Of a stretch of 64,000 nucleotides of DNA, positions 6,656 through 44,694 are shown piece after piece. The DNA lies in the NCBI GenBank assembly GCA_965208675.1, contig OZ242351.1, positions 1,120,001-1,184,000 on the forward strand, given 5' to 3'. The notes below the pieces were generated by a model. It did no database searches and was not told the origin of the DNA. It was given only the letters and a program-made list of their open reading frames with translations. How positions within the stretch are numbered: position 1 is the stretch's first letter; each line of letters opens with the position of its first letter. The translations under genes were made by a program, and so were the position numbers. The stretch comes from Candidatus Poribacteria bacterium (lineage in GTDB: Bacteria; Poribacteria; WGA-4E; PCPOR2b).

Positions 6656-6751
6656 CTTTATCAGGCAATAGAAATCTCCGCTCCGAAGCGTTGCGGAGCA
6701 ATCCTACCTTAAAGTAATTCCATTTCCCAATTGAGTACGGAGGTAAGTCAG

Positions 6752-8707: not shown

Positions 8708-8831
8708 TGCTCATGAAAGCCGACTGAATTGTGAAGATGGGTCATGGGACGATTCAAACTGGTAGGGTGCCGCTACTCTAAATGGCGCGGATTTTAATAT
8801 TCAACATTGCCTAACACGCAATGCGAACACC

Positions 8832-10739: not shown

Positions 10740-10813
10740 CGCCTTGATGGTTCATGCAATCAGATTCCACTAAGTAGAACAGAGTTCCCAATCAAACCCC
10801 AGGAGGACGACAA

Positions 10814-11563
10814 ATGAGATTGAATCTGTTTTGCATCGTATCGCTCTGTCTTATGAGTCTGATACTGAGTTGCGGCGATGACGAAGACGAACCGTCAATA
10901 GACGTTGTTATGTCGCCGACTGAGAGTCTTAAAGTTAAGGCAGGTATTCCGGACTCGGACAACATCGCGGTACCTGATGCTGACGAGGATCGCGTCAAGA
11001 ATCCAGAAATTGCAGAACCCGAGGTAGATCCCATCCAAGAAGCCATTGATGACGTTTTGGAACGCTTGCGGGAGGGATACGAAAAGGAAGATATCGCCCT
11101 GTATTTGAGTGCGTTCTGGATAGACGGATTTCAGTACATCGTCGATATGGCGACCCCCCACGATATATTTGACGATGTGATTTTTGACGAGTTCAAACAG
11201 GAAGCGCAATCAGCTGCGCGGGTGTTTGCGCGTTTCCAAGATATCGGCCTGCAAATTATAAACCCGGCTCAGATCGTGAGTGAAGCCCCCGAACAAATTG
11301 AAGCCGTGACCCATTATCGTGTTCAAGCGTTCGCTAACGATGGGCACGCGCTCGACGGCGGATTTCTTGCATGGTATGCGGAGGGAGATGCTCGATTCAC
11401 GTTTGAATTTCGCGAGGGCGAGTGGCGGATAACCAAGTGGTTTGACGAGGCACTTGGTGTGCAAGCAATTCACGTTTTCAATCTCGGCATTAAACCTGAA
11501 CCTGTTATTAGCCATATCGGAAAATTGGTCTCTATATGGGGCGTAATAAAAACCGCATTTTAG
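10814..11563 (+). CDS. Lipoprotein, acidic, possible NTF2-like domain
   Basis: Lipobox LILS-C, GYEKEDIALYLSAF...GEWRITKW pattern, C-terminal VISHIGKLVSIWGVIK; AGGAGG SD. Confidence 0.75.
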   Translation: MRLNLFCIVSLCLMSLILSCGDDEDEPSIDVVMSPTESLKVKAGIPDSDNIAVPDADEDRVKNPEIAEPEVDPIQEAIDDVLERLREGYEKEDIALYLSAFWIDGFQYIVDMATPHDIFDDVIFDEFKQEAQSAARVFARFQDIGLQIINPAQIVSEAPEQIEAVTHYRVQAFANDGHALDGGFLAWYAEGDARFTFEFREGEWRITKWFDEALGVQAIHVFNLGIKPEPVISHIGKLVSIWGVIKTAF

Positions 11564-11569
11564 AGGAGA

Positions 11570-13333
11570 GTGCACGTGACTTGTCGCACGGTCTTTTTTA
11601 CGGTAGTATTCACCATCATCTCATTTGCCGTATGCGCGAGAGAACAGATTCTGTTCGTATCCGGACGACACGGTAACGATGAGATATACAGGAATTTTCC
11701 CGGCGCCAAAACTCAGAGGCTTACATTCGATGATGGTCGGGATTTATCCCCGGCGTTGTCGCCCGATGGGAAAAAGATGGCGTACGTCTCGACAATCGAC
11801 AAGGTATTCGAAATTGCCGTTCTAGACTTTAAATCTGGCAAACGCGAGCAACTTACATTCTCGCTCAAAAGCAACCGCCATCCTACTTGGTCCCCGGACG
11901 GCAGCCGAATCGCTTTTTCTTCAGAACGAGATGGCGATTCCGACATATTTATCATGGATTCAACTGGAAAGAATGTAACAAAGATGACCGACAACTTTCC
12001 GTGGGATGATAACTCACCGCATTGGTCGCCGACGAGCCAAAGGGTTGTGTTTATTTCTGATAGAGACAGGAAAGCCGATGAAATTTACTTGCTTGACACA
12101 CAGACCGGTAATCAGCGACAACTTACAACTTCATCAGTCCGGGCAGTATATCCCAAGTGGTCACCGAACGGATCCCAGATTGCCTACCTTGCGCCCCGGC
12201 GACAAAAGTTCCCTCCGCATATTATGGGGATATGGCGCGCGAAGCTTGATGGTTCGGATCTGGAGGCATTGGTCGCTGATGGGAATTTCAACGAGGCCCC
12301 AAAGTTCTCTCGCAATGGGAAATGGATCGCGTTTGAGTCTCAAAGAGACCGTAATCAGGACATTTTTGCCTTGCACCTCGAAACCCAACAATTGAAACGG
12401 TTAACGACACACCCCGGCGAAGATTCGTCCCCCGACTGGTCGCCAGACGGCGAACGCATCGTTTTTTCATCCAACAGAGAGGGCATACCCGATTTTGATA
12501 TTTACACGATGTCAGTCAACCGAGAACAGTTGACCAATCTTACTAAGAGCGGCATGGTGGAGTTAAATCCCGCGTGGTCCCCAAACGGAGAACAGATCGC
12601 TTTCAGCCGGGTAATGAATGATAATAGTATCAGGATTTACGCGATGGATACCGATGGCGAAAATGAAGTCTTATTGGTTGACATGCCCTTTTCCAATATT
12701 TCGCCGGCATGGTCTCCACAAGGGGACAAACTCGCTTTTGTGAATTTCCCAGAGCGTGGAGACACAAAATTTCAAATTTGTGTCGTTGCCCGTGATGGAA
12801 AGCATTTACGAGTATTCAATGAAAATTTGGATGGATCAATGGGGCAAATTGTTTGGTCTCGCGACGGAAGGCAGATTCTTTTCAGTCAAATTGACGGTCG
12901 AATTGCCTTTTACGATACGGAGACACATGTAGTCCGCACAATTGATATGCCGGTGGAAAATGTCTTCAATCTCGATTTGTCTCCCAATGGTGAGGAACTA
13001 ATTTTTACAGGTGTCAAGTGGTTGGAAAAACTTGAACGCCATTATGATGTCTTCTTGATTGACCGAGACGGGAATCCCTTACGAACTATATTAATGGATG
13101 CGGTGCCATCATCCTTAACCGGTGGGCTTGCCTGGTCTCCCGATGGGAGTAAGATTCTAGTAGGTCTTGACGATGGGTTGCACACGCTAGACTTGAATAC
13201 TGAAGACATAGAGCTGTTCATCAATTCTGCCGGGTCCCCTGATTGGCAGGATCCCTCTCTCCCGCGTTCGGTTTTTCCGCGAAACAAGTTGAATACCACA
13301 TGGGGTGCGATGAAAAAGAGCGAGAGACAATGA
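11570..13333 (+). CDS. Exported TolB-like PD40 repeat protein 3
   Basis: Signal peptide, WSPDG/WSPNG repeats, VFPRNKLNTTWGAMKK. Confidence 0.85.
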   Translation: MHVTCRTVFFTVVFTIISFAVCAREQILFVSGRHGNDEIYRNFPGAKTQRLTFDDGRDLSPALSPDGKKMAYVSTIDKVFEIAVLDFKSGKREQLTFSLKSNRHPTWSPDGSRIAFSSERDGDSDIFIMDSTGKNVTKMTDNFPWDDNSPHWSPTSQRVVFISDRDRKADEIYLLDTQTGNQRQLTTSSVRAVYPKWSPNGSQIAYLAPRRQKFPPHIMGIWRAKLDGSDLEALVADGNFNEAPKFSRNGKWIAFESQRDRNQDIFALHLETQQLKRLTTHPGEDSSPDWSPDGERIVFSSNREGIPDFDIYTMSVNREQLTNLTKSGMVELNPAWSPNGEQIAFSRVMNDNSIRIYAMDTDGENEVLLVDMPFSNISPAWSPQGDKLAFVNFPERGDTKFQICVVARDGKHLRVFNENLDGSMGQIVWSRDGRQILFSQIDGRIAFYDTETHVVRTIDMPVENVFNLDLSPNGEELIFTGVKWLEKLERHYDVFLIDRDGNPLRTILMDAVPSSLTGGLAWSPDGSKILVGLDDGLHTLDLNTEDIELFINSAGSPDWQDPSLPRSVFPRNKLNTTWGAMKKSERQ

Positions 13334-13460
13334 TAGGATTCTCGTTACAGAATAATAACCACAATGGCGCAATAGGTTGACTTCGTTCTTAAATGAAATA
13401 CGCACCACGCACAGCGCTTCATCTCTATTTGCGGCAACCGGTGAACAGGGAGGGATTGTT

Positions 13461-15221
13461 ATGAAGCATTACATGGTGATTACGGTTGGTCTAATCTTTG
13501 CGGCGTTGCACTCGAGCGCGGAAGAGCAAATACTGTTTGTATCTGACCGGCACGGCAACGATGAGATATATCGGCATTTCCCCGGAATCAGGACCCAGCG
13601 ACTGACATTCGCGGCGGGATTGGATTCAGATCCAGCGCTATCGCCCGACGGCACAAAGATGGCATATGTCTCTTCACCCAATAGGACATTCCAAATTACC
13701 GTCCTAGACTTCAAATCTGGTAAACACGAGCAACTTACATTTTCGCTTTCACCCAAGCGCAATTTTAGCCCAAGTTGGTCACCGGACGGCGATCGAATCG
13801 CTTTTGCTTCAGACCGAGACGGCGACATGGATATATATATCATGGACGCAAACGGAAGGGACGTATCAAATTTGACCGACGATTCCTTGTGGAACGATAG
13901 TTCTCCGCATTGGTCACCGGTTAGTAACAATATTGTGTTTATTTCATATTGCGGCACTGAATGGGATGAAGTTTATCTGCTTGATGTACAGACCGGCATT
14001 CAGCGAAAACTCACATCCTCGTCCTATTTCGCTGCCCATCCTAGATGGTCGCCGAACGGGTCGCAGATTGCCTACCTCTCCACGCACGTGCCCTTGCCTG
14101 CGTTTGTGCAGCCGAATACTGCGATTTGGCGCGTGAAGTCGGACGGTTCAGATTTGGAAAAAATTGTGACTCAAGGCGAGACAAACACGCATCCGAAATA
14201 CTCCCCCAATGGAGAATGGGTTGCGTTCGAATCTTATATAGATTCAAATTCCGACATTTACACCTTGAACATCAACACCCAAGAACTAATTCGTTTAACT
14301 ACACACCATGGCTACGACTCCTACCCCGATTGGTCTCCGGACGGCGAACGAATTGCTTTTGTTTCCGGCAGAGACGGAAACCTAGACATCTTCACCATGA
14401 CCGTCAACCGTGAGCAGCTAACTAATCTGACAATGAACGGTTTTTCTGAACACCATCCTACTTGGTCCCCAGACGGAGAGAGAATCGTATTCAGCCGAAG
14501 GATGGGGGACACCAGCACCAGGATTTTCGTGATCGACAGCGATGGAGAAAATGAAGTCGAATTGGTTGATTTGCCGATTTCAAACACGTTTCCAACATGG
14601 TCGCCGCGAGGAGACAAACTCGCTTTTGTGAATCGTCCTGAACCGGGAGAACCGAAGTCGCGAATATATACGATAGATTTCGATGGACAGAACTTGGATG
14701 TAATCTATGAAGACCTGGACAATCGAATTGGAGAAATGGATTGGTCCGCCGATGGGACTCAGATCATTATTAATCAAATCCGCGGTCCAATCTCGTTTCT
14801 CGACCTGGCGACCCAAGAGGTCCAGACAATAAACGTGCAAGTAAGCAATCTCTACACTCTTGATTGGTCACCGAATGGCCAAGACATTATTTTTTCAGCG
14901 CCAATACCGGTCGAGGTTGGTGAACCGCGTCACGGTATCTTCATCATTGACCGCGACGGCACGCCTTTAAGAACTATCTATATGGACACGCCGCCGTTTA
15001 CTAGGGCGGATGGCCTTACTTGGTCACCCGACGGGAATAAGATGCTCTTCGGTCATGACGGCAAGTTGTTCATGCTTGACTTGGAAAGTGAAGCGGCGGA
15101 ACTGTACATGGAAACAGGCGGTAATCCCGATTGGCAGGATCCGACGCGCCCTCGCCCAGTGTCTCCGCGAAATAAGCTGAACACAACATGGGGCGAGTTG
15201 AAAAAGGGCGAAAGACGTTGA
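13461..15221 (+). CDS. Exported TolB-like PD40 repeat protein 4
   Basis: Start MKHYMV at 13461 after GGAGG; WSPDG repeats; VSPRNKLNTTWGELKK. Confidence 0.85.
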   Translation: MKHYMVITVGLIFAALHSSAEEQILFVSDRHGNDEIYRHFPGIRTQRLTFAAGLDSDPALSPDGTKMAYVSSPNRTFQITVLDFKSGKHEQLTFSLSPKRNFSPSWSPDGDRIAFASDRDGDMDIYIMDANGRDVSNLTDDSLWNDSSPHWSPVSNNIVFISYCGTEWDEVYLLDVQTGIQRKLTSSSYFAAHPRWSPNGSQIAYLSTHVPLPAFVQPNTAIWRVKSDGSDLEKIVTQGETNTHPKYSPNGEWVAFESYIDSNSDIYTLNINTQELIRLTTHHGYDSYPDWSPDGERIAFVSGRDGNLDIFTMTVNREQLTNLTMNGFSEHHPTWSPDGERIVFSRRMGDTSTRIFVIDSDGENEVELVDLPISNTFPTWSPRGDKLAFVNRPEPGEPKSRIYTIDFDGQNLDVIYEDLDNRIGEMDWSADGTQIIINQIRGPISFLDLATQEVQTINVQVSNLYTLDWSPNGQDIIFSAPIPVEVGEPRHGIFIIDRDGTPLRTIYMDTPPFTRADGLTWSPDGNKMLFGHDGKLFMLDLESEAAELYMETGGNPDWQDPTRPRPVSPRNKLNTTWGELKKGERR

Positions 15222-15275
15222 TACGATTCGCATGACACAATTTTCTGAACGCTGGCACAATAAGGAGGGATAGTT

Positions 15276-17036
15276 ATGAAACATTACATTGTGATTGTGG
15301 TAGGTTTCACCCTGGTGTCATTGATAGCGAGCGCGGAAGATCAGATTTTGTTTGTTTCCGGAGAAATCAGGGAAGCCGAGATATACAGGCAATTTCCCGG
15401 CGGCAAAACCGAAAGGCTCACATTTAACAGCGGAAGGGATGGTGACCCAGCGCTATCTCCCGATGGGACAAAGGTGGCGTATTTCACAACTATTGATAAA
15501 GTATTCCAGATTGCCGTCCTCGACTTTGCATCTGGAAAAAGCCAACAACTTACATTTTCGCGTTGGCCCAAGCGAAATTTCAATCCAACTTGGTCGCCGG
15601 ACGGAAGGCGAATCGCCTATTCTTCAGAAGAAGATGGTGATTTCGATATTTATATCATGGATGCCGATGGCAAGAACGTCACAAATATGACCGACGATTC
15701 CCCGCGGCACGATAGGCAGCCCCATTGGTCACCAGTGAGCCAAAAGATTGTGTTTATCTCTAATCGGGACGATTACGCGGGAGAAGATGTGAATTTGCTT
15801 GATGTGCAAACCGGCAATCAGCGAATGCTCAAAAACCCATCATATGGAGCGGGTTATCCCAAATGGTCCCCGAACGGTTCCCAGATTGCCTACATATCAG
15901 CGGAACGGCCTGAGATTCCTCCGTTAACCTGGGCGATTTGGCGCATGAAGGCGGACGGATCGGATTTGGAACCGTTGGAAACTGAAGTCGACAGAGAATC
16001 GTACCCGAATTTCTCTCCCGATGGGAAGTGGATTGCATTTGCAACATGGAGAGACGCAAATACAGACATCTATGCTGTCAACGTGGAAACTCATGAGGAA
16101 ACTCGTTTAACAATGCATCTTGGCTACGACTCACACCCTGATTGGTCTCCAGACGGCGAACGAATCGCATTTGTTTCCGGTAGAGACGGTAACAGCGATG
16201 TTTTTACTATGACTGTCAACCGAGAGCAGCTAACCAATTTAACCAAGAGTGTCACATATGAGTCTCATCCCACTTGGTCGCCTGACGGCGAAAAAATCGC
16301 TTTCAGTCGGAGGATGGGGGACACCAGCATCAGAATTTACGTGATAGACAGCACAGGTGAAAATGAAGTCAAATTGGTTGACGCGCCGTTTTTCAATATA
16401 TATCCGGCGTGGTCGCCGCGAGGGGATAATATCGCTTTTGTAAATCACCCGGAACGGGAAAATCCAATGTTCCGAATTTGTACGGTTGACACGGATGGGC
16501 AAAACCTACAAGTATTATATGAAAATCAGGAAGAAGAAGGGGCGCCAGGAATCTCTTGGTCCGGTGATGGGACTGAGATCCTACTCCGTCGAGACGGCGG
16601 TCGAATCGCCTTTCTTGACACGGTTACCCGTGAAGTTCGCACTTTGCAGCTACCAGTGATCGGCATTGACAACCCCGATTGGTCGCGCAACGGCAATGAA
16701 ATCACGTTTTTGGCGATAGCCCATACAATCGAATCCTTTGAACCGCGCGACGGGGTCTACATAATTGATCGCGAGGGGAATCTGTTACGGACAATTTTGA
16801 CGGGCGGCCACTTCATTACTCACCATGGATTAGCTTGGTCACCGGACGGAAATAGGATTCTCGTCGGCCGCGAAGACGGCATATATACGCTTGACCTGGA
16901 TAGCGAAGCCATGGAGCTATTCATGGAATCCGCCAGTGAACCGGATTGGCAGGATCCGACACTACCTCGCTCAGTGTCTCCGCGAAATAAGCTGAACACA
17001 ACGTGGGGCGACATGAAAAAACTTGGAGCGCGCTGA
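15276..17036 (+). CDS. Exported TolB-like PD40 repeat protein 5
   Basis: AAGGAGG SD; signal peptide; VSPRNKLNTTWGDMKK. Confidence 0.85.
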   Translation: MKHYIVIVVGFTLVSLIASAEDQILFVSGEIREAEIYRQFPGGKTERLTFNSGRDGDPALSPDGTKVAYFTTIDKVFQIAVLDFASGKSQQLTFSRWPKRNFNPTWSPDGRRIAYSSEEDGDFDIYIMDADGKNVTNMTDDSPRHDRQPHWSPVSQKIVFISNRDDYAGEDVNLLDVQTGNQRMLKNPSYGAGYPKWSPNGSQIAYISAERPEIPPLTWAIWRMKADGSDLEPLETEVDRESYPNFSPDGKWIAFATWRDANTDIYAVNVETHEETRLTMHLGYDSHPDWSPDGERIAFVSGRDGNSDVFTMTVNREQLTNLTKSVTYESHPTWSPDGEKIAFSRRMGDTSIRIYVIDSTGENEVKLVDAPFFNIYPAWSPRGDNIAFVNHPERENPMFRICTVDTDGQNLQVLYENQEEEGAPGISWSGDGTEILLRRDGGRIAFLDTVTREVRTLQLPVIGIDNPDWSRNGNEITFLAIAHTIESFEPRDGVYIIDREGNLLRTILTGGHFITHHGLAWSPDGNRILVGREDGIYTLDLDSEAMELFMESASEPDWQDPTLPRSVSPRNKLNTTWGDMKKLGAR

Positions 17037-17205
17037 AACAATACATTCGCGTGATCGTAGTTCGAAGAAGCCGTGAATACGCGTAGCGATTATATTACGC
17101 CATTGACACACTTTGGACTCGACTTTCGGTTACAGTTATTCCCCTCAACCAATCCAATCCTACATTACATCTCATTTAGTTCAAATTTTGGAGGAGAGAT
17201 ACAGT

Positions 17206-18960
17206 ATGATCTATCGCATTGCCGTGTTCGCGGTGAGTCTCGCTTGTATTGCGTTGTACGCTATCGCGGAAGAACAGATCCTCTTTGTAACCGACCGAGA
17301 TGGGAACAGCGAGATATACAGATATTTTCCCGGCGGCAGACCAACTAGGCTTACATTTCACGAAGGACTGGATGGCGCTCCAGCGTTATCCCCGAATGGG
17401 AAATCAATGGCTTATGTCACGATGATTAATCGGGCATCCCAAATCGCCGTGCTGGACTTCAACACCGGCAAACGCCGGCAACTGACATTTTCACCCAAAA
17501 ACGATGTCCATCCTACATGGTCACCGGACGGCAGACGAATCGCATTTGCTTCAGATCGGGACGGCGATTTCGATATATACATTATGAATGCAAACGGGAA
17601 GAACGCGAAAAATATGACCGATAATTCCGCTCTGCAGGATGGATCGCCTCATTGGTCTCCCGTGAGTCAGAAGATTGTGTTTACTTCTGAGCGGGATCAT
17701 CAGGCTCCAGAAGATGTCAATGTGCTTGATGCCCAGACTGGCAATCAGCGAACACTCATAACTTCATCAACTTTTGCGTTCAATCCCAAATGGTCACCGA
17801 ACGGGTCGCAGATTGCCTACTTTTCGCAGGAACTGCCTGACGCTTCACCGTCGACTACTCTTCTTTGGCGAGTGAAACCAGATGGTTCAGAATTGGAAGC
17901 ATTGGTGACTGGAGGAGAGTCAAACTCACATCCCAAATATTCTCCTGATGGATCGTCAATTGCGTTTGTGTCTGAAAGAAACTTTAACACAGACATTTAT
18001 ACTTTTAACCTTGAAACCGATGAGTTATCTCGTATAACAACACATCTCGGCTTCGATTTGTACCCCGATTGGTCTCCAGACGGAGAACGGCTTGCCTTCG
18101 TTTCCAGCAGAGACGGGAATTTAGATGTCTTTACAATGACTGTCAATGGAGAGCGCGTTACAAACCTGACTAAGAGCGGCATGATGGAGGCGCTTCCCAC
18201 TTGGTCTCCAGATGGGAGAACAATCGCTTTTAGTCGAGCGATGGGAGATAATAGCATCAGGATATACACGATTGATTCCGGTGGTGGAAATGAGGTTAAA
18301 CTGGTTGACTTACCGGTTGACAACGTCTCCCCTACCTGGTCTCCGCAGGGCAATAAACTGGCTTTCGTAAATATCCCGGAACGTGGAGACCCGACACACC
18401 GAATTTACACGGTTGACCCTGATGGAAGAAATCTACGCCTGTTGCATGAAGAACCGGTCGATTCAATCGACGAAATTGCTTGGGGACGTGACGAATCCCA
18501 AATAATTTTCAATGGATCCACCAATGGAATCGACTTATTGAACACGGAGACGCGTGAAGTCCACTCGATAGATTTGGATGTATGGAATCTCAATTCTCTC
18601 GATTCGTCACCCGACGGGGAAGACATTATCTTTTCAGCGTCAAAGCCAATTGAAAATCCGGAGCGGCGCTTAGGAGTCTTCATCATTGATACTGAGGGAA
18701 TGCTCCTACGAATTGTCCCAACGGACGTGCCGATTTCATTATTGAACCTAGGGCTTTCATGGTCACCGGATGGGAATGAGATTCTCGTTGGGCATGGCGA
18801 AGGGTTGTACAAGCTAGATTTGAATAGCGAAGCCATGGAGCTATTCATGGAATCCGCCAGTAATCCGGATTGGCAGGATCCGACACTACCTCGCTCAGTG
18901 TCTACGCGAAATAAGCTGAACACAACGTGGGGCGACATAAAAAAACTTGGAGCGCGCTGA
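17206..18960 (+). CDS. Exported TolB-like PD40 repeat protein 6
   Basis: Start MIYRIAV at 17206 after GGAGGAG; VSTRNKLNTTWGDIKK. Confidence 0.85.
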   Translation: MIYRIAVFAVSLACIALYAIAEEQILFVTDRDGNSEIYRYFPGGRPTRLTFHEGLDGAPALSPNGKSMAYVTMINRASQIAVLDFNTGKRRQLTFSPKNDVHPTWSPDGRRIAFASDRDGDFDIYIMNANGKNAKNMTDNSALQDGSPHWSPVSQKIVFTSERDHQAPEDVNVLDAQTGNQRTLITSSTFAFNPKWSPNGSQIAYFSQELPDASPSTTLLWRVKPDGSELEALVTGGESNSHPKYSPDGSSIAFVSERNFNTDIYTFNLETDELSRITTHLGFDLYPDWSPDGERLAFVSSRDGNLDVFTMTVNGERVTNLTKSGMMEALPTWSPDGRTIAFSRAMGDNSIRIYTIDSGGGNEVKLVDLPVDNVSPTWSPQGNKLAFVNIPERGDPTHRIYTVDPDGRNLRLLHEEPVDSIDEIAWGRDESQIIFNGSTNGIDLLNTETREVHSIDLDVWNLNSLDSSPDGEDIIFSASKPIENPERRLGVFIIDTEGMLLRIVPTDVPISLLNLGLSWSPDGNEILVGHGEGLYKLDLNSEAMELFMESASNPDWQDPTLPRSVSTRNKLNTTWGDIKKLGAR

Positions 18961-19087
18961 AACAATATGATAGCACCATCACAGGTCGAAAAAGGTGCGA
19001 ATTCCCAAACATTTTGGATAAGGTCTATGACGCATTCGCACACACATGAAGCCCCATTACGTCCAAAATTTGGAGGAGAGGTCGCGT

Positions 19088-20842
19088 ATGATTTATCGCA
19101 TTGCCGTGTTCACGGTAAGTCTCGCTTGTATTGCGTTGTACGCTAACGCTGAAGAGCAGATCCTCTTTGTGTCCGACCGAGACGGGAACAGTGAGATATA
19201 CAGGTATTTCCCCGGCGGCAGACCCAAGAGGCTTACATTTGACGAAGGACCGGATGGCAATCCAGCGCTATCCCCGAGTGGAAAATCAATGGCGTATGTC
19301 ACGACGATTAATCGGGTATCCCAAATCGCCGTGCTGGACTTCAACTCTCGCAAACCCCGGCAACTGACTTTTTCACCCAAGAGCGATGTCCATCCTACAT
19401 GGTCCCCGGACGGAAGACGAATCGCATTTTCGTCCAACCGCGACGGTGATTTCGATATTTATATCATGAATAGAAACGGGACGAACGCGATAAATATGAC
19501 CGATAATTCCCCCCTGCACGACGGATCGCCTCACTGGTCTCCAGCAAGCCAAAAGATTGTATTTACCTCTGAGCGGGATCGTCTAGCACCAAAAGATGTT
19601 TATGTGCTTGATTCCCAAGCTGGTAACCGGCGAAGACTCATCACTTCTTCATCATTTGCGTTCAATCCCAAATGGTCACCGAACGGGTCACTGATTGCGT
19701 ATTACTCTACGGACATGTCTGACACCTCACCGTCGACTACTCTTCTTTGGCGAGTGAAACCAGATGGTACAGAATTGGAAGTATTGGTGACTGAAGGGGA
19801 GTCAAATTCACATCCCAAATTTTCTCCTAATGGATCATCAATTGCGTTTGTGTCTGAGAGAAACTTTAACATGGACATTTATGCTTTAAACCTTGAAACC
19901 AAGGAGCTAATGCGCTTAACAACACATCTTGGCTTCGATTCGCACCCCGATTGGTCTCCAGATGGAGAACGGCTAGCCTTCCTTTCCAGCCGAGACGGGA
20001 ATTCAGATGTCTTTACAATGACTGTCAATGGAGGGTACATCACAAACCTGACTAAGAGCGGCATGAATGAGGGGTTTCCCACTTGGTCCCCTGACGGAGA
20101 AAAAATAGCGTTTAGTCGGTTAATGGGGGACAACAGCGTCAGGATTTACGCGGTTGATTCCGATGGTGATAATGAGGTTCAACTGGTTGACTTGCCAGTT
20201 GCCAACCTCTACCCTGTCTGGTCCCCGCGCGGGAACAGACTGGCTTTTGTGAATCTCCCGGAACGCGGAGACTCGAAATACCGTATTTATACGGTTGACC
20301 CCGATGGGATAAACCTACAAATTTTGTATGAAGATTTGCTCGAACCTATTAACGAAATTGCTTGGTCACACGATGAGTCTCAGATTATTTTTGGTCGAAC
20401 CAACAATGCAATCGCCTTTCTGGATACGGAGACAGGTGAAGTCCACTCAATAGATGTGCCTGTATGGAATCCCAGTTCCCTCGATTCGTCACCCGACGGG
20501 GAGGACATTGTCTTTTCAGCGTCAAAGCCAATCGAAAATCCGGTGCGGCGGTTAGGAGTCTTCATCATTGATACTGACGGAATGCTTCTACGAATCGTCC
20601 CGACTGACCTGCCGATAACGTTGTTGAACCAAGGGCTTTCGTGGTCTCCCGACGGGAATACAATTCTCGTCAGTGACGAAGAAGGCATATACACGCTTGA
20701 CTTGGACACCGAATCCGTTGAGCTATTCATCGAATCTGCCAGTTATCCGGATTGGCAAGATCCGTCTCTCCCGCGCGCGGTCACTCCTCAGAACAAGCTG
20801 AATACCACATGGGGTGAGATGAAAACCGACGAAACGCGTTGA
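19088..20842 (+). CDS. Exported TolB-like PD40 repeat protein 7 (close paralog of protein 6)
   Basis: Start MIYRIAV at 19088 after GGAGGAG; VTPQNKLNTTWGEMK. Confidence 0.85.
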   Translation: MIYRIAVFTVSLACIALYANAEEQILFVSDRDGNSEIYRYFPGGRPKRLTFDEGPDGNPALSPSGKSMAYVTTINRVSQIAVLDFNSRKPRQLTFSPKSDVHPTWSPDGRRIAFSSNRDGDFDIYIMNRNGTNAINMTDNSPLHDGSPHWSPASQKIVFTSERDRLAPKDVYVLDSQAGNRRRLITSSSFAFNPKWSPNGSLIAYYSTDMSDTSPSTTLLWRVKPDGTELEVLVTEGESNSHPKFSPNGSSIAFVSERNFNMDIYALNLETKELMRLTTHLGFDSHPDWSPDGERLAFLSSRDGNSDVFTMTVNGGYITNLTKSGMNEGFPTWSPDGEKIAFSRLMGDNSVRIYAVDSDGDNEVQLVDLPVANLYPVWSPRGNRLAFVNLPERGDSKYRIYTVDPDGINLQILYEDLLEPINEIAWSHDESQIIFGRTNNAIAFLDTETGEVHSIDVPVWNPSSLDSSPDGEDIVFSASKPIENPVRRLGVFIIDTDGMLLRIVPTDLPITLLNQGLSWSPDGNTILVSDEEGIYTLDLDTESVELFIESASYPDWQDPSLPRAVTPQNKLNTTWGEMKTDETR

Positions 20843-28291: not shown

Positions 28292-29080
28292 TCACCCATG
28301 GACTGCGTCTGCAAATCTCTTCATCAACGAAATGGAGTTTTGCTGTTCAATGACGTTTCCTGTCACGATAAAGTCCGCCCCGGCGTTGACCTTTGCAACC
28401 GCCATCTCGGGCGTAGTGATTCCTCCACCCACTATGATAGGGATAGTGACATGTTTGCGAACTGCGCCGATTATTTCGTCGGGAACCGGTATTTTTGCAC
28501 CGCTGCCCGCCTCAAGGTAGATGAACTTCATACCGAGATACTCTGCGGCAAGCGCGTGCGCCCACGCAATGTCCAATTTATCACGCGGGAGCGGGGCGGT
28601 CCCGCTCATAACTTCAACCGAAGTAGCGGTACCACCGTCAATAAGCATATACCCTGTGGATATCGCCTCTATACCACAACGGTGAATCAATGGCGCCGCT
28701 TTAACCTGCTCGCCGATTAGAAAATTGGCATTCCGGCCGCTGATTAGGCTTAGATATAATATGGCATCGGCATGTTGGGATAGGTGCATAGAGTCCCCGG
28801 GGAACACAATGACCGGTAACGACGTCTCATCCCTCAAGGCCTTTGCAAACGGGTTGAGGTCATTTGTCAAGAGGCTGCTCCCCAGCAACAGTGCATCAAC
28901 TCCGGCTTCTTCCGCTTGATGCGCAGCATGAACGCAATCCGCGATGGAATGCCGATCCGGGTCTAAGAGTACGATGTAGCCTGCTCTGCATCTTGACAGG
29001 ACATTCCGTAGGTAATCTAAGGTTGAACCTGATTTCATGGGGTTAGGTGTTTGGAGATATGTTTTTTCAATTCTTCTCAC
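28292..29080 (-). CDS. Geranylgeranylglyceryl phosphate (GGGP) synthase, group II
   Basis: LLDPD, LLGSS, LPVIVFPG, ADAILYLSLISGRN..FLIGEQ, IYLEAGSGA, PIIVGGGI, GADFIVTGN: PcrB/GGGPS TIM barrel with group II signature; start uncertain. Confidence 0.92.
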   Translation of the reverse strand: MRRIEKTYLQTPNPMKSGSTLDYLRNVLSRCRAGYIVLLDPDRHSIADCVHAAHQAEEAGVDALLLGSSLLTNDLNPFAKALRDETSLPVIVFPGDSMHLSQHADAILYLSLISGRNANFLIGEQVKAAPLIHRCGIEAISTGYMLIDGGTATSVEVMSGTAPLPRDKLDIAWAHALAAEYLGMKFIYLEAGSGAKIPVPDEIIGAVRKHVTIPIIVGGGITTPEMAVAKVNAGADFIVTGNVIEQQNSISLMKRFADAVHG

Positions 29081-29116
29081 GCCGCCATTGAATCTGATGG
29101 AATTAGACCGATTGCG

Positions 29117-30310
29117 TCAGAGCCATCCAGAGAGTATGAGATGTCTCAATTCCAGTAGTAAGCGTGGTTGGTGCATCAATACCGTCTTAAAAATCTGCGT
29201 CATGTTGACCTTGTCAGGCGGCATCTTTGACACCACCTCTGCACACTTGTCAAAAAGGTCATCACTGAATTTGAGCACACCATCTCGTATTCGGCAGACG
29301 TGCTTGAAATTACTGCCAATTTCCTTATCCCACCGGTTTTGATATTCGCTCAAAATCTTTGCGGACACATCTCCAATCTGGATTGCATTGACCGCAGCCT
29401 CGGCGGCAAATTGTCCCGAATACATTGCGTTTGCGATTCCACCGCCAGAAATAGGATCGCTATGGTGCGCCGCATCGCCAATCAGAGCGATTCCGTCTCC
29501 GACAATCTTGGGCAGGCTATTGCCTACCGGCACACATCCGACGACCTGCGCAAGAATTTTTCCGTGTGGAAATTTTCGTTTGACGAATTCATTTAGATAG
29601 TCGATGGCGAGCTTCCCGCCCTTGCCTGAGATTGTCCCGCCAATTCCGATGCCGACATTCGCAATGTCATCTCCCTTGGGGAAAACCCAGGCATAGCCTC
29701 GCGGCGCAAGCTCCCGCCCAAGGTAAAAATCGCAGAAATCGGGGATAATGTCGATCTTAGAAATTAAGTATTGGGCGCAAATGTCCACGTCCCGTAAATC
29801 GTGTGTGCTATCTATGCCCGCCCATCGAGCTACCTGCGATTCAATTCCGTCGGCGGCGATCACGACCTTCGCCTTGCATGAGTAGTCACGTCCGAAATAA
29901 CGGAATTCCACCCCGTTGACGAAACCGTCATCTGACTTGGAAACGGTAGTCACCCTGGCTTTAACAATTATGTCGGCACCCGCGTCCGCCGCCATTTCCG
30001 CCAAGACACGATCGAAGACCTTGCGCTCTAAAACATAACCGGCGCCCGGAAAATGGATTGTGGCGGGGGTTTCGTTTGGAGAAAAGATTCGAGCACCGTT
30101 AATCTCGCGCGAAACCCACGCCGGATCGGGCTGCACAAACTCGCACAGCGACGCTGTGCCAATCCCCTCCGCTCAACGCACGGGCGCCCCGATTTCCTGA
30201 CGTTTTTCCAACAATAAGACACGCAATCCATTATCTGCGGCAACCTTTGCTGCTATTGCGCCTCCAGGACCGGCACCGACAACAATGACATCATAGTCCG
30301 AGTGAAACAT
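29117..30310 (-). CDS. Archaeal-type digeranylgeranylglycerophospholipid (geranylgeranyl) reductase, 397 aa, with an in-frame TGA at codon 46 (candidate selenocysteine)
   Basis: ORF-track pieces 30173-30418 and 29117-30136 are in the same frame, joined by TGA at 30173-30175: [17 protein letters not shown]...[16 protein letters not shown]...; [12 protein letters not shown] and DPISGGGI are intact; ATG overlaps the ferredoxin stop (TGATG). Confidence 0.88.
30137..30165 (-). promoter_or_regulatory. Candidate bacterial SECIS hairpin
   Basis: mRNA UGA-GCGGAGG-GGAUU-G-GCACAGC-[GUC]-GCUGUGC-G-AGUUU: 7-bp apical stem, G-first loop 20 nt after UGA, weak lower stem. Confidence 0.65.
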
Positions 30311-30528
30311 CAAAAAAGTCCCCGTCCTTCGTATGCCGGGTAATACACCTTGCCGTTTCGTTCTAATGCAAGCACGCCTACCGGGCAACCTTTGATGCAC
30401 CGCGCACAGTCGGTACACTTTGGCTGGTCAATTTTCAGGTAAATATCAACGAGATCAATGATGTTCTCAGGACAGACGGCAACACAAGCCCCGCAATAAC
30501 TACAAAGTTCTTCGTCTATAAGAATCAT
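30310..30528 (-). CDS. 2x[4Fe-4S] ferredoxin
   Basis: [12 protein letters not shown] and [12 protein letters not shown]; stop overlaps the reductase start. Confidence 0.92.
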
Positions 30529-30639
30529 CGCATGCCTTTCCCGCTTGAGAACGTAATTTCTTCAGCGTGAGTTTCCTAATATTTGGATTCATTTAACGTT
30601 TAATGGTCAACTACTTTTCTTATGCATTTGCTATCGAAG

Positions 30640-31461
30640 TTAATTTATCGCTTGAAGCTGCTGACGGCGGGCGTGTTCATACAGTATTATTCCAGCGGCG
30701 ACCGCAACGTTCAAAGAGGATTGGCCGGGCGCCATAGGAATCTTGACAAGGTTGGTGCAGCGCTGGAGAATTTCTCTCCTGATTCCTTCGTTTTCATTTC
30801 CCACCACAATCGCCACGGGCGTAGTAAGTTCCAGATCATACAGGCTTTTGTTTGCCTTAGCGGTGGCACCGAGAATCTCAAATCCCGCCGAAATCAACTC
30901 GCGGAAATAATCTTCCGGCGACTCGCAAAATGCCAGTGAAATGCGCCCAACAGCCCCTCTCGCCGCTCGAACACAGTTCTTATGGTAGGGGTTTGCACCT
31001 TCTCCGATGAATACGACGCATTCAACTGCCGCCGCTTCAGCCGTGCGCAGCACCATGCCAAGGTTATCCGGATTGGTGATGCTATCAGCGATTAGCAGCA
31101 TACTCTCCGCGGACAAGTGAAAATTTGAAACGTTCCGGTAATTCATCCAAACCGATGCAACCACGGCTGGAACCGGTCTCGTGCTAGTAATGGTCCCCAT
31201 TATTCCGGAGCTAAGCATAAATGGTGCGAAATTTGCTGCAACGGCATTTTTCAGTAATGCAACCCCTAGGTCATTCGCCAACAGGTCGGGAGTGTAGAGG
31301 ATTTTGTCAACCGGTAACTTGTCATGAACTGCACGATTAACGAGTGTAACGCCTTCAACCACAAATCTCGACGCCTTCAACCTCCCGTTTAGAGAGGTGA
31401 GTTTGCGAAAGTCAGTGATGATAGGATGCTTCTTATTGTGTATAACCGCTCGGTTCGCCAC
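30640..31461 (-). CDS. TrmH/SpoU-family RNA 2'-O-methyltransferase
   Basis: FVVEG, NPDNLGMVLRTA, VVGNENEGI, IPM...SLNVAVAAGIILYE. Confidence 0.92.
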   Translation of the reverse strand: MANRAVIHNKKHPIITDFRKLTSLNGRLKASRFVVEGVTLVNRAVHDKLPVDKILYTPDLLANDLGVALLKNAVAANFAPFMLSSGIMGTITSTRPVPAVVASVWMNYRNVSNFHLSAESMLLIADSITNPDNLGMVLRTAEAAAVECVVFIGEGANPYHKNCVRAARGAVGRISLAFCESPEDYFRELISAGFEILGATAKANKSLYDLELTTPVAIVVGNENEGIRREILQRCTNLVKIPMAPGQSSLNVAVAAGIILYEHARRQQLQAIN

Positions 31462-31467
31462 TTATGT

Positions 31468-32331
31468 CTATGGGGAAGATCCAAGGTAGATTGCCCCCAA
31501 TCCAATGAAAATGTCCCACTTCATCCATTTTTGAATCTTTGCGCTGTTGGCTTTAGAATCATTCCGCCAAAGCCGAAAGCCTAAATAGATTAAAACCAAA
31601 TCCACACCCACGATAACGGTTAAAAGATAATGCCACGAGTACCAATTCAGTAAATAAGGAATAGGACTGAACAGTATGACCGCGGTGATGAAGATGAGTG
31701 CAACCAGCACGGCAACTCGTTTTCCCCAAACAACCGGGATTGTACCTGCATCGTTCCGAACATCACCCTCCATATCCTCAATGTCTTTAATTATCTCTCT
31801 TGCGGTGGTAAACAGGAACGCAAATACCGCTGGAACGAACGTACCGTATACAGTCAGCACCGAGGTTCCTCCTACAATGAAAGTTAAACCTGTCAGTACC
31901 CCGACTAGGAGGTTACCGAATAATGGTGTCTGTTTCAAGCCGAACGCGTAAAAGCATAGACAACCGGACACGATGACGGTGATTACCGCTGTGGGCACGT
32001 TTACTGCAAATCCAAGCAATATTCCCAGTCCCATCAATATTATAGAAAACACCATGGCGCCCTGTCGGGAAATCCTTGCGGACGGAATCGGACGTCCGGG
32101 TTTGTTAATCCGATCTATCTCGTAGTCACAATAATCGTTGAGCGCATTTCCCGCCGATAGGAGGAGAAACGCCGAAATCGCTGCCAAAAACACATCGATA
32201 TTAGTAACAACGACCCATTCCCCCATTCCGACTGCAAACTTGGCTCCGAAATAGACGGAGCAAAAAGCGATCAATCCGTTTATTGGACGTGAAAGTTCAA
32301 GATAAGCTGAAGTCATACGGGTAACCGCCAA
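31468..32331 (-). CDS. Digeranylgeranylglyceryl phosphate (DGGGP) synthase-like UbiA prenyltransferase
   Basis: L-x-RP-x-N start, AGNALNDYCDYEIDRINKPGRPIPS, AREIIKDIEDMEGD...TIP motifs typical of the DGGGPS subfamily; multiple TM helices. Confidence 0.85.
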   Translation of the reverse strand: MAVTRMTSAYLELSRPINGLIAFCSVYFGAKFAVGMGEWVVVTNIDVFLAAISAFLLLSAGNALNDYCDYEIDRINKPGRPIPSARISRQGAMVFSIILMGLGILLGFAVNVPTAVITVIVSGCLCFYAFGLKQTPLFGNLLVGVLTGLTFIVGGTSVLTVYGTFVPAVFAFLFTTAREIIKDIEDMEGDVRNDAGTIPVVWGKRVAVLVALIFITAVILFSPIPYLLNWYSWHYLLTVIVGVDLVLIYLGFRLWRNDSKANSAKIQKWMKWDIFIGLGAIYLGSSP

Positions 32332-32344
32332 ATGCGTAGGGTTG

Positions 32345-33412
32345 TTACGCGTCGCGCCCTGGATATGTGATGCCGAATCTTGCGGAATAATACCAGCGTA
32401 TGAGAATTAGACTTCCTGCGAGTAAAATAAGATAAAATGGGACTAAAACACAAGCGATTAGTGAAAGAATGAGTATACCAGCCCGTGCCGCGAAGATAAT
32501 TACCCTTCGTTCTCTCCTGAAGTTCATATATATGAAAGGCGGTAAACAGAGTAATGCGGTAAACAATGGTATCATATCTCTGACCCGCCATGCGGCCAAA
32601 ATTGCGCCTACCAATAGCAACAAGCTCAACAAGCAGGATAGCTTGGCGCCTAATATTACGCCGGTGGTACGATCTCCGAATTCACTGTCGCCGTTCAAAT
32701 CTGGGAGCGTTGTGTTGACAAAGGCTGCCCCCACACACAAGGCATAAGGGATTATCCGCCGCAAGGCTTCGCTGTTAATCGGCGCTGCTATCGCCCAGCC
32801 GATTAAAAATGCGATGCCGCCATAGCCGACAGCGTTCGCTAAAAGGTCGAGGAAGGGTCGCCCTTTTAATCGAACTGGACGAACGGAATAAATCACGCCA
32901 AGTAAGATTGAAAGCCCAATTAGGACGAGATAACTCAGGTTGTTTCTAAACCATAAGCCTGCCCAGACCACGGCAGAAACCAGTAACATGCCGGCTTCCA
33001 ATACAAGCAGCCGTAATTTCACATGTCCCTGAGCAACGAGAAAGAGTTTGTTGTTTGCGGCGTCTGTTTCTTTGTCGCAGATTTGATTGATGATGTAAAT
33101 TGCCCCCATCAGCATAGAGTACAAACAGAGGGTACCCATCAACTCATGATTGGGACGAACCAATATATTAAATTTCGGTAGAAATGAGAGCTGTACTGCC
33201 CTCAATCCTTCGTATGTAGGATTTTCAGTCAATGCGCCATAATGGCCAAGCAACACAAGCGTCCAAACCGGCAACAGTAGTGTTGGACGAAGGACAATCA
33301 GATAATCCAAAAGATGCAACGCTTTTTGTGTCGCGGATTGCAGCTTGTTTTGAGTGAGTGAATTTCCCATTACAAATCCGACCGCGCCCGAGATGCCGCG
33401 TCTACAATACAT
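32345..33412 (-). CDS. Second UbiA-family prenyltransferase, substrate unknown
   Basis: YIINQICDKETDAANNK, YS..P.RLKGRP..D, TLPDLNGDSEFGDRT; multiple TM helices; start uncertain. Confidence 0.85.
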   Translation of the reverse strand: MYCRRGISGAVGFVMGNSLTQNKLQSATQKALHLLDYLIVLRPTLLLPVWTLVLLGHYGALTENPTYEGLRAVQLSFLPKFNILVRPNHELMGTLCLYSMLMGAIYIINQICDKETDAANNKLFLVAQGHVKLRLLVLEAGMLLVSAVVWAGLWFRNNLSYLVLIGLSILLGVIYSVRPVRLKGRPFLDLLANAVGYGGIAFLIGWAIAAPINSEALRRIIPYALCVGAAFVNTTLPDLNGDSEFGDRTTGVILGAKLSCLLSLLLLVGAILAAWRVRDMIPLFTALLCLPPFIYMNFRRERRVIIFAARAGILILSLIACVLVPFYLILLAGSLILIRWYYSARFGITYPGRDA

Positions 33413-43592: not shown

Positions 43593-44694
43593 TTAAGTTT
43601 GGCTTCTCTTTTTCAAGTAACTTTCGATAAAAATCTCTAAATTGCCATCCATGACTGCGTCAATGTTTCCCGTTTCAACATTAGTCCGTAAATCTTTTAC
43701 TAACCGATAGGGATGAAACACATAGGATCGGATTTGATTGCCAAAATTGATATCCGGGCGTTCCCCCTGCAGCTTTGTAATCTCTTCGCGGCGGCGCATC
43801 TGATAATGTTCGTAGACCCGTGAACGTAATACTTTCATTGCAAGTTCCCGGTTCTTATGTTGCGACCGCTCATTCTGGCATTGAGCGACGATTCCTGTTG
43901 GAATGTGAGTCATTCGGACTGCAGAATCTGTTCGGTTCACATGCTGTCCGCCGGCGCCGCTTGATCGATAAGTATCAATTCTCAGATCAGCGGGTTGGAT
44001 GTCAATGTCAACAGTCTCGCCGATTTCAGGGGAAACGGCAACCGCAGCGAAGGAAGTGTGGCGGCGGTGATTAAAATCGAATGGCGAAAGACGGACAAGT
44101 CGATGTACGCCGACTTCAGCACTGAGGTAACCGTAGGCATACTCGCCTGAGACCAAAACGGTCGCACTCTTGATTCCCGCTTCCTCACCGGGCATCAGTT
44201 CAATAGTTTCGGTTTGGTAGCCGCGTCGTTCGCACCAACGCGTATACATTCGCAAGAGCATGAACGCCCAGTCCTGGGATTCTGTGCCGCCTGCTCCGGG
44301 GTGAATCGTCAAGATGGCATTACTTAAGTCATGCTTTCCATTAAGCAGGAGCATTGTTTCTACCTGCTCAATCTGCTCCTCAATGCCTTCTAGGTTTTTA
44401 CTAATTTCTCCACTGACACTCTCATCGTTTTCTTCAATTGCCAGTTCAAGTAGAATTTGAATATCTTCTAGCTGGGAGTGGAGTTTCCCATATTGTCCAA
44501 TTTCTTCCTGTAAATTTGCGAGCCGCTGCGTGACTTTTTGGGCGTGTTGAGAGTTGTTCCAGAAATCCGGCTTTGACGCCTCGCTTTGAAGTGCGTCTAT
44601 CTCTTCCGCTTTACTCGCAATGTCAAAGACACCCCCTGAGGTCAAGGAGTCGATTAGAGACCGCTTGGACGTTGAGTTTCAAATCAGCTAGCAT
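43593..44694 (-). CDS. prfB: Peptide chain release factor 2 with programmed +1 frameshift
   Basis: ATG 44694 MLADLKLNVQAVSNRLLDLRGCL, then AGGGGG-TGT-CTT-TGA-C (44637-44622); SPF and GGQ motifs downstream. Confidence 0.97.

Follow-up and report, generated by a model that had tools for sequence, protein, structure and literature searches.

An archaeal-type ether-lipid gene cluster in Candidatus Poribacteria with a candidate selenocysteine-containing geranylgeranyl reductase

We describe a cluster of six genes in a 64,000-nucleotide window of DNA from Candidatus Poribacteria bacterium (GenBank assembly GCA_965208675.1, contig OZ242351.1, positions 1,120,001 to 1,184,000). The genes are co-directional on the minus strand at window positions 28292–33412, with intergenic spacings of 6–111 bases, and they include relatives of the enzymes of archaeal-type ether-lipid synthesis. 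One of them, the gene for a geranylgeranyl reductase (GGR), is interrupted by a TGA codon that appears to specify selenocysteine (Sec). An original prediction made from the sequence alone had proposed this six-gene run, and family matches confirm all six genes on that strand.

Genes of the cluster

In the direction of transcription, the cluster begins with a gene for a divergent UbiA-family prenyltransferase (UbiA2; 32345–33412, 355 amino acids; Pfam UbiA, 67.9 bits). A second UbiA-family gene follows, whose product resembles digeranylgeranylglyceryl phosphate synthase (DGGGPS; 31468–32331, 287 amino acids; Pfam UbiA, 146.9 bits), and then a gene for a SpoU/TrmH-family RNA 2′-O-methyltransferase (30640–31461, 273 amino acids; Pfam SpoU_methylase, 129 bits). 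The remaining genes encode a 2×[4Fe-4S] ferredoxin (30310–30528, 72 amino acids), the GGR (29117–30310) and a group II geranylgeranylglyceryl phosphate synthase (GGGPS; 28292–29080, 262 amino acids). The TGA stop codon of the ferredoxin gene and the ATG of the GGR gene share one base.

The identity of the GGGPS, already given in the original prediction, holds under curated models, as the protein passes the equivalog cut-off of TIGR01769 (206.6 bits; cut-off 161.55) and that of NF003198 (274.3 bits; cut-off 247). Its best matches in the PDB are 4jej (E = 1.1e-51) and 4mm1 (E = 2.4e-50), and the set that these form with 6jo3 and 6nke spans 1e-43 to 1e-51. We take all four structures to be group II enzymes. 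Matches to chains 2f6u and 4nae/4naf, presumably of the group I or PcrB heptaprenyl type, are weak by comparison (E of 1e-5 to 1e-7). On these comparisons the protein appears to be a group II GGGPS resembling the solved group II enzymes.

The DGGGPS-like UbiA is closer to DGGGPS than to quinone or heme prenyltransferases. Its best PDB match is 6m31, the DGGGPS of M. jannaschii (E = 4e-38), with the motif NDxxDxxxDRINKPxRPxPS aligned, and its two Asp-rich motifs (NDYCDYEID and DIEDMEGD) align with those of 6m31. The protein scores 237.4 bits on PRK12884 and 223.9 bits on the DGGGPS model PRK12882, and far lower on the models for heme o synthase (53 bits), UbiA (41 bits), MenA (28 bits) and ChlG (89 bits). 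In a tree of 78 rows, the Poribacteria sequences form one clade (support 99). Its branching order relative to a Marinimicrobia clade and to the clade that unites all 33 archaeal rows (97) is not resolved, and a Bacteroidota clade lies far from these. On this tree, a recent acquisition of the gene from a single archaeal lineage seems unlikely.

Both Asp-rich motifs of UbiA2 are intact (NQICDKETD and DLNGD). No NCBIfam model passes its cut-off for this protein, atlas, homologue and PDB searches yield merely the label UbiA family, and the sole PDB match is a chlorophyll synthase (E = 5e-6). Relatives of UbiA2 come chiefly from Poribacteria and then from KSB1. In the loci fetched across the phylum, the gene is co-located with the DGGGPS-like gene and lpxD; it adjoins the DGGGPS-like gene in the order to which the window belongs and is 2–3 kb away from it in others. 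The remaining UbiA genes of the genome encode an MqnP-type menaquinone prenyltransferase, a heme o synthase and a third, weakly DGGGPS-like protein. This last paralogue (G000:C1:1239151-1240071, L160; 306 amino acids) lies about 87 kb from the cluster and scores 126 bits on PRK12884 and 107 bits on PRK12882.

The SpoU/TrmH protein reaches 129.5 bits on the RlmB model TIGR00186, under its cut-off of 160. Its gene occupies this position in some Poribacteria families and is absent from it in others, and it is probably a passenger. The ferredoxin carries two CxxCxxCxxxCP motifs in its translation and gives weak matches to ferredoxin families. In some sister Poribacteria lineages it is found as a fused N-terminal domain of GGR homologues of 465–480 amino acids, and the genome survey described below also reveals open frames of 457–477 amino acids in this fusion context. 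Such natural fusions speak for contact between ferredoxin and GGR.

An in-frame TGA at the catalytic cysteine position

Under translation table 11, the GGR gene is read as one open reading frame (ORF) of 81 amino acids and another of 339 amino acids, broken by a TGA at positions 30173–30175 (codon 46). Read through this codon, the gene encodes a protein of 397 amino acids that passes the subfamily model TIGR02032 (236.6 bits; cut-off 158.8), aligns over its full length with the lipid reductase of T. acidophilum (PDB 3oz2, E = 3.6e-79) and contains the motifs GxGxxG, RxxFD, PxxYxWxFP and LxGD. It scores 300.6 bits on NF041160, the Thermoplasmatales model for digeranylgeranylglycerophospholipid (DGGGPL) reductase, and lower on the models of other families (MenJ, 69 bits; ChlP/BchP, 165 bits). 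The original prediction was right about the family of this protein; the in-frame TGA went unmentioned there, and a full-length reductase requires that UGA be decoded. Gene callers record the gene only as C-terminal pieces of 283–346 amino acids.

The TGA stands in place of the conserved catalytic cysteine (Cys) of the family, Cys47, which has been reported to be essential for catalysis in the solved archaeal GGRs. Codon 46 falls opposite the Cys of PVRCGEG in 3oz2 and its counterpart in 3atq. All 13 full-length homologues have the invariant Cys of PVRC[AG]EG opposite the TGA, and a Cys occupies the site in 149 of the 150 best representatives of 50%-identity clusters; the one other representative, P0392 (308 amino acids), begins past the site. 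Reassignment of TGA as in genetic code 4 or 25 is out, as TGA ends 20 of the 52 ORFs in the window, including those of the ferredoxin and the GGR itself, and is the commonest ordinary stop codon there.

We surveyed 176 Poribacteria genomes for the GGR at a threshold of E ≤ 1e-60 and obtained matches in 56. A TGA occupies codon 46 in 39 of these matches, all from families f1–f4 of the window's order. Another 13 cover the codon without a stop and all come from outside that order, and four do not reach it. Fifty of the loci were fetched for codon reading, and the N-terminal alignment was readable in the window and 49 loci. Codon 46 is TGA in 39 sources (the window and 38 genomes), always in a PV/L/I-R-U-AEG context, and TGT or TGC in 11 orthologues from other orders. 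The Sec-form proteins are 69–95% identical to the window's GGR, with identity continuous across the stop. Further lesions occur in only two Sec-type copies, G029 (broken) and G135 (one extra TAG), and the 37 others have none.

A tree of 49 full-length GGR rows requires one change of state, on a branch with the 38 Sec rows on one side and the 11 Cys rows on the other (support of 98 in the Shimodaira–Hasegawa-like approximate likelihood ratio test). Furthermore, a scan of metagenome DNA with the pattern EKR[QP]EIGxPVR-TGA-[AG]EG recovered 21 contigs, all of Poribacteria type, with 71–85% identity and the same synteny. This degenerate pattern, which misses AGR arginine codons and diverged motifs, detected no Sec-GGR motif outside Poribacteria.

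A hairpin resembling a selenocysteine insertion sequence (SECIS) lies at positions 30137–30165 of the same strand (core stem 30143–30159). It begins 13 nucleotides after the UGA and comprises a seven-pair stem and a three-nucleotide loop whose first base is an invariant G. A bacterial SECIS element is expected to form a stem-loop shortly after the UGA and to have a conserved G in its loop, and this hairpin agrees. Among 37 distinct Sec-form sequences, the pair 24–38 is CG in 30, UA in four and UG in three; the pair 25–37 is AU in 30, GC in six and GU in one; and the pair 29–33 is CG in 17, AU in 12, UA in three, UG in one and unpaired in four. Overall, 88.7% of the hairpin cells are paired, compared with 25–56% when partners are slid by one to three columns. 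In 500 column shuffles, neither the pairing nor the covariation score of the real alignment is attained even once; because the sequences are related, this count is not a probability. RNAalifold independently gives five of the hairpin pairs.

The compensatory changes in the hairpin also alter the protein, exchanging Thr and Ala at residue 52 and Cys, His and Arg at residue 56. Because pairing is preserved at the cost of amino-acid changes, selection on the RNA is indicated. The structure also differs between the two forms of the gene: six or seven of the seven core pairs are formed in the Sec forms (38 sequences), compared with one to four in the Cys forms (11 sequences), and mean hairpin energies are −10.4 and −5.7 kcal/mol, respectively.

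The genome carries the machinery for selenocysteine decoding. The selA and selB genes are adjacent at 2.13 Mb, with a gene for tRNA-Sec (anticodon tca) directly beside them, and selD (G000:C1:4649539-4650462, L162) carries its own in-frame TGA, so that it is probably a selenoprotein gene itself. A gene for a CUAEP/CCAEP-tail radical SAM (seleno)protein is found at G000:C1:3663601-3665025 (L173; 680 bits). The selenoproteome of this genome is probably larger than the genes examined here. The available part of a 2026 publication (PMC13582414) lists Poribacteria among the phyla with Sec-type hydrogenases.

Taken together, the TGA at the catalytic Cys, its conservation, the SECIS-like hairpin and the presence of the decoding machinery make selenocysteine the best reading of codon 46, and we regard it as highly likely that this UGA encodes Sec. 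The arrangement resembles that of bacterial selenoproteins described in the accessible portion of PMC13188914, with a UGA at a conserved Cys, a hairpin inside the coding sequence, selABCD genes and sister clades of Sec and Cys forms.

Genomic setting and distribution in the phylum

The flanks of the cluster are bacterial, as anticipated from the lpxD, bamA, hrcA and mur genes. Upstream on the same strand are genes for a polysaccharide deacetylase, LpxD, Skp and BamA. Downstream of the GGGPS gene, a gap of 212 bases with a promoter-like site precedes hrcA–grpE–dnaK–dnaJ. Elsewhere in the window are genes for MurE/F-type ligases, MraY, Ddl, a penicillin-binding protein, MraW and Lnt, and LolCDE-like genes. 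The host is a diderm bacterium. Promoter and terminator scans yield numbers no different from chance (25 promoters found against 17.0 ± 4.8 expected, and 17 terminators against 13.2 ± 3.7).

The genome is a single contig of 4.89 Mb and is 96.4% complete. Near-identical DNA is present in sponge-metagenome runs from several studies, and metagenome contigs from four runs in four studies are collinear over the whole cluster, and no insertion or deletion is listed for them. All 5121 bases of the cluster are covered by each of two single metagenome contigs, which differ at 97 and 104 letters. Forty contig differences are listed, with 212 more beyond these; the TGA site is absent from the 40, which speaks neither for nor against the TGA. 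GC content is uniform across the cluster region, and the gene order recurs in other Poribacteria genomes. The collinear independent contigs, the recurring gene order and the even GC content rule out misassembly or a chimera, a concern attached to the original prediction, and the contig is sound.

Within the phylum, the two prenyltransferase genes are widespread and their distributions nearly coincide. Of the 176 genomes, 144 have GGGPS, 142 have the DGGGPS-like gene and 56 have the GGR. Tallies of GGGPS and of the DGGGPS-like gene are equal in the genera sampled most deeply (one of 20 genomes in g5, 33 of 40 in g8 and 62 of 65 in g14). The GGR is patchy in g8 (8 of 40) and g14 (5 of 65). GGGPS, GGR, ferredoxin and the DGGGPS-like gene occur together in 29 of 50 GGR loci, which represent several families and orders, and 44 of the 50 loci have a ferredoxin match immediately before the GGR.

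In a further comparison of loci, eight of 14 of Poribacteria type have the order LpxD–(UbiA2)–DGGGPS–SpoU–GGGPS with no reductase. Among 66 loci from outside Poribacteria, GGGPS adjoins DGGGPS in eight, all of them archaeal.

Two further patterns concern lineages related to that of the window. In the sister genus g5, which belongs to the window's family, GGGPS, the DGGGPS-like gene and the GGR are all unseen in 19 of 20 genomes. The exception, G019, has the cluster in full, and its GGGPS match contains a TAA. The pattern suggests that one genus has cleanly lost the trait as a whole. In the orders with Cys-type GGRs, a conserved protein of 494–558 amino acids with no Pfam family is encoded between the DGGGPS-like gene and UbiA2 (L143:8275-9933, L142:2948-4624, L137:4283-5905 and L147:8253-9737, minus strand). 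These proteins are 34–62% identical to one another, and three of the four start with a signal-peptide-like stretch; tblastn finds no homologue in the window's genome.

Other features of the window lie apart from the cluster. Seven tandem genes for PD40/WD40-like beta-propeller proteins (586–658 amino acids) form a paralogue array on the plus strand at 6731–20842, and an ORF of 249 amino acids with no Pfam match is interspersed in it. Two genes of the PhyH (phytanoyl-CoA dioxygenase) family are located on the minus strand at 1589–2419 and 61685–62485. Near the start of the window are genes for a tyrosine recombinase of the phage-integrase family (3412–4314, plus strand) and an rve-type transposase or integrase (5238–6062, minus strand). 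A release factor gene with PCRF and RF-1 domains is an ORF of 350 amino acids at 43593–44645 (minus strand).

Predicted pathway, alternatives and implications

We consider it reasonably probable that the cluster is a set of genes for isoprenoid glycerol ethers, chromosomal and vertically inherited in Poribacteria, with a selenoprotein GGR. Judging from the sequences, it also seems probable, at a similar level of confidence, that (partly) saturated diether lipids are its product. In such a pathway, GGGPS would join geranylgeranyl diphosphate (GGPP, C20) to glycerol phosphate, yielding geranylgeranylglyceryl phosphate with the first ether bond; we infer both the C20 chain and the stereochemistry of the glycerol phosphate. 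The DGGGPS-like UbiA would then carry out a second prenylation, giving digeranylgeranylglyceryl phosphate with the second ether bond, and bacterial CdsA may activate this product, a role proposed because no CarS was found. The GGR, an FAD enzyme, would saturate the chains with electrons from the co-translated ferredoxin as the putative donor, with Sec46 predicted to lie at the flavin. Its own synthesis would require recoding of the UGA at codon 46 by means of the hairpin 13 nucleotides downstream together with selA–selB–tRNA(Sec) and selD.

Parts of the supporting metabolism are present. A search of the genome for egsA/araM, carS/cdsA and polyprenyl synthases, as the original prediction had proposed, returned CdsA and two polyprenyl synthases and neither a glycerol-1-phosphate (G1P) dehydrogenase nor CarS. 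One of the synthases scores best on the IdsA (241 bits) and GGPP-synthase (226 bits) models, below the cut-off of both. GpsA is encoded as well, and three PlsC-type acyltransferases score above the Pfam cut-off. Homologues of tetraether synthase (Tes) are noted in 10 of 29 Poribacteria metagenome-assembled genomes in the portion of PMC11868695 available. In the window's genome, none was assignable by NCBIfam among 10 of 21 radical-SAM matches (open frames of at least 430 amino acids). To our knowledge, no NCBIfam model for Tes exists.

Several results weigh against the reading of the cluster as a pathway for saturated ether lipids with a selenoprotein reductase. No G1P dehydrogenase (EgsA/AraM) was found in the genome, the best of five Fe-ADH_2 candidates being GldA-like (79 bits on the G1P dehydrogenase model; cut-off 413). 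CarS (PF01864) has no match in the 4.89-Mb, 96.4% complete sequence, and PlsY was not found in the genome. The GGR lies below the equivalog cut-offs for lipid DGGGPL reductases (300.6 against 780 bits for NF041160 and 179 against 580 bits for NF041080). The DGGGPS-like UbiA similarly falls under the curated cut-offs of PRK12884 (269 bits), PRK12882 (296 bits) and PRK12883 (171 against 353 bits). In family f2, the ferredoxin–GGR pair is apart from GGGPS and DGGGPS, with GGGPS elsewhere in five of five f2 genomes tested. This separation, together with the presence of the GGR in 56 and GGGPS in 144 of 176 genomes, indicates that the reductase is not an obligate partner. Rfam SECIS families give no match to positions 30000–30300 at E values up to 10, and the 81-nucleotide stretch around the hairpin, folded alone, is no stabler than shuffled sequences (z = −0.70). 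The hairpin is not seen in the single-sequence fold and emerges only from comparative analysis. None of the runs listed with the stretch is on record as RNA.

The most serious alternative is that the genes are active but yield minor or specialised ethers, or that the enzymes act on archaeal lipids taken up by the cell, so that there is no real mixed membrane. Apart from the missing G1P dehydrogenase and CarS, this account draws on the presence of genes for fatty-acid lipids (GpsA, PlsC-type acyltransferases and CdsA) and on two precedents. The accessible text of PMC6431249 describes the role of GGGPS and DGGGPS as unclear in bacteria that lack G1P dehydrogenase, with catabolism as one possibility, and the part of PMC9179154 available reports that Bacillales PcrB products bear a single C35 chain. 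Yet the GGGPS/DGGGPS pair is retained in 142–144 of the 176 genomes of the phylum and lies directly after lpxD, in a neighbourhood of envelope biogenesis, and a reductase that depends on selenium, accompanied by a ferredoxin of its own, has persisted across an order, which would be costly for a trace product. We judge this alternative to be rather unlikely.

Another possibility is that the ferredoxin–GGR pair reduces some other polyprenyl compound, such as the menaquinone side chain, a polyprenol or GGPP, and that its adjacency to GGGPS and DGGGPS is circumstantial. The pair that stands alone in f2, with GGGPS elsewhere, fits this idea, as does the lack of the GGR in most genomes that have GGGPS and DGGGPS (56 compared with 144 of 176). 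The only model that the GGR passes is the broad one for the GG-reductase subfamily, an MqnP-type menaquinone prenyltransferase is encoded in the genome, and archaeal GGR paralogues may saturate other terpenoids according to the available text of PMC10821996. However, the top-scoring models and structure are those of lipid DGGGPL reductases (300.6 bits; 3oz2 at E = 3.6e-79), well ahead of MenJ (69 bits) and ChlP/BchP (165 bits), and 29 of 50 loci, from several families and orders, have the GGR flanked by DGGGPS and GGGPS. We therefore regard a different substrate as improbable.

That the TGA is a true stop in a pseudogene or split gene (81 and 339 amino acids), leaving only unsaturated ethers, is very improbable: the frame is broken under table 11, gene callers record only the C-terminal pieces of 283–346 amino acids, the G029 copy is truly broken and G135 has its extra TAG, but a stop at one codon in 39 genomes at 69–95% identity, 37 of them without another lesion, is unlike decay, the split would break the FAD-binding fold right at the catalytic residue, covariation is seen in the hairpin, and the Sec machinery and a second UGA-containing gene (selD) are present.

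The broader form of the favoured reading, in which Poribacteria make saturated ether lipids of the archaeol type as well as lipid A, and in one order depend on selenium for their saturation through the Sec GGR, is put forward tentatively. The original prediction had already suggested such a mixed membrane of isoprenoid ethers and lipid A. That suggestion keeps its conjectural character, as the search of the whole genome found no G1P dehydrogenase and no CarS, and the products of the cluster would have to be membrane lipids for it to hold.

Among the closest known counterparts are the gene sets of bacteria of the Fibrobacteres–Chlorobi–Bacteroidetes (FCB) group, such as Ca. Cloacimonetes. These are likewise diderms with GGGPS, a DGGGPS-like UbiA, a GGR and CdsA and without G1P dehydrogenase or CarS, and according to the available part of PMC7852524, the Cloacimonetes GGGPS and DGGGPS yielded ether phospholipids in E. 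coli. The same text cites work in which bacterial CdsA can replace CarS. The FCB comparison drawn in the original prediction is apt in these respects, with the correction that the host itself is Candidatus Poribacteria and not an FCB-group bacterium. One large clade of the tree holds the Poribacteria DGGGPS-like proteins along with archaeal and some FCB sequences. The sets differ in phylum, in the clustering of the Poribacteria genes with a ferredoxin right after lpxD, and in the Sec form of the GGR. The description of the set as unusually complete was overstated, given that Cloacimonetes metagenome-assembled genomes also encode GGRs, likewise without G1P dehydrogenase and CarS, in the accessible portion of PMC7852524; the special feature here is physical clustering with the ferredoxin.

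The reductase has archaeal counterparts as well. It shares with the DGGGPL reductases 3oz2 and 3atq (S. acidocaldarius) a full-length alignment, FAD-binding motifs and the active-site position, and differs from them in the replacement of Cys47 by a UGA-encoded residue that is probably Sec, in its scores below the equivalog cut-offs and in its bacterial host. For the GGR of Methanosarcina acetivorans, a title cited in PMC7852524 states that the neighbouring ferredoxin is required for full reduction. A small ferredoxin gene adjoins the GGR gene in both cases, as far as that citation describes the archaeal one; in contrast, the Poribacteria genes overlap by one base and are fused in sister Poribacteria lineages.

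We found no description of the cluster or of a Sec GGR in the literature, a search whose scope left supplements and subscription journals outside and leaves a mention under a generic name possible. Poribacteria are unmentioned in the main texts of PMC7852524 and PMC6431249, and the words geranylgeranyl, isoprenoid and lipid are absent from the main text of a 2026 review of selenoproteins (PMC13188914). On this reading, the reductase represents a newly recognised Sec form within a known enzyme family, and the ether-lipid gene set is real and conserved in a phylum new to it.

These findings extend archaeal-type ether-lipid genetic potential to another bacterial phylum, one of abundant sponge symbionts that are not FCB bacteria, in a form that is phylum-wide, clustered and vertically inherited, and they bear on the debate over the lipid divide. 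A mixed membrane could be sought in natural material, namely sponges rich in Poribacteria. Truncation of the gene by gene callers means that surveys of lipid genes in metagenomes may under-call or mis-call the GGR in this clade.

As a selenoprotein candidate, this protein would bring the GGR into the families that have Sec forms, and its Sec would sit exactly at the position of Cys47, whose part in GGR catalysis has long been debated. The pair of Sec and Cys forms in sister orders makes the role of that residue directly testable. Selenocysteine and cysteine contrast in pKa, and this underlies the argument about Cys47. If the reading is true, the enzyme would be the first selenoenzyme of membrane-lipid synthesis, and its occurrence would amount to a natural experiment indicating that Cys47 is redox-active or nucleophilic and not a simple proton donor.

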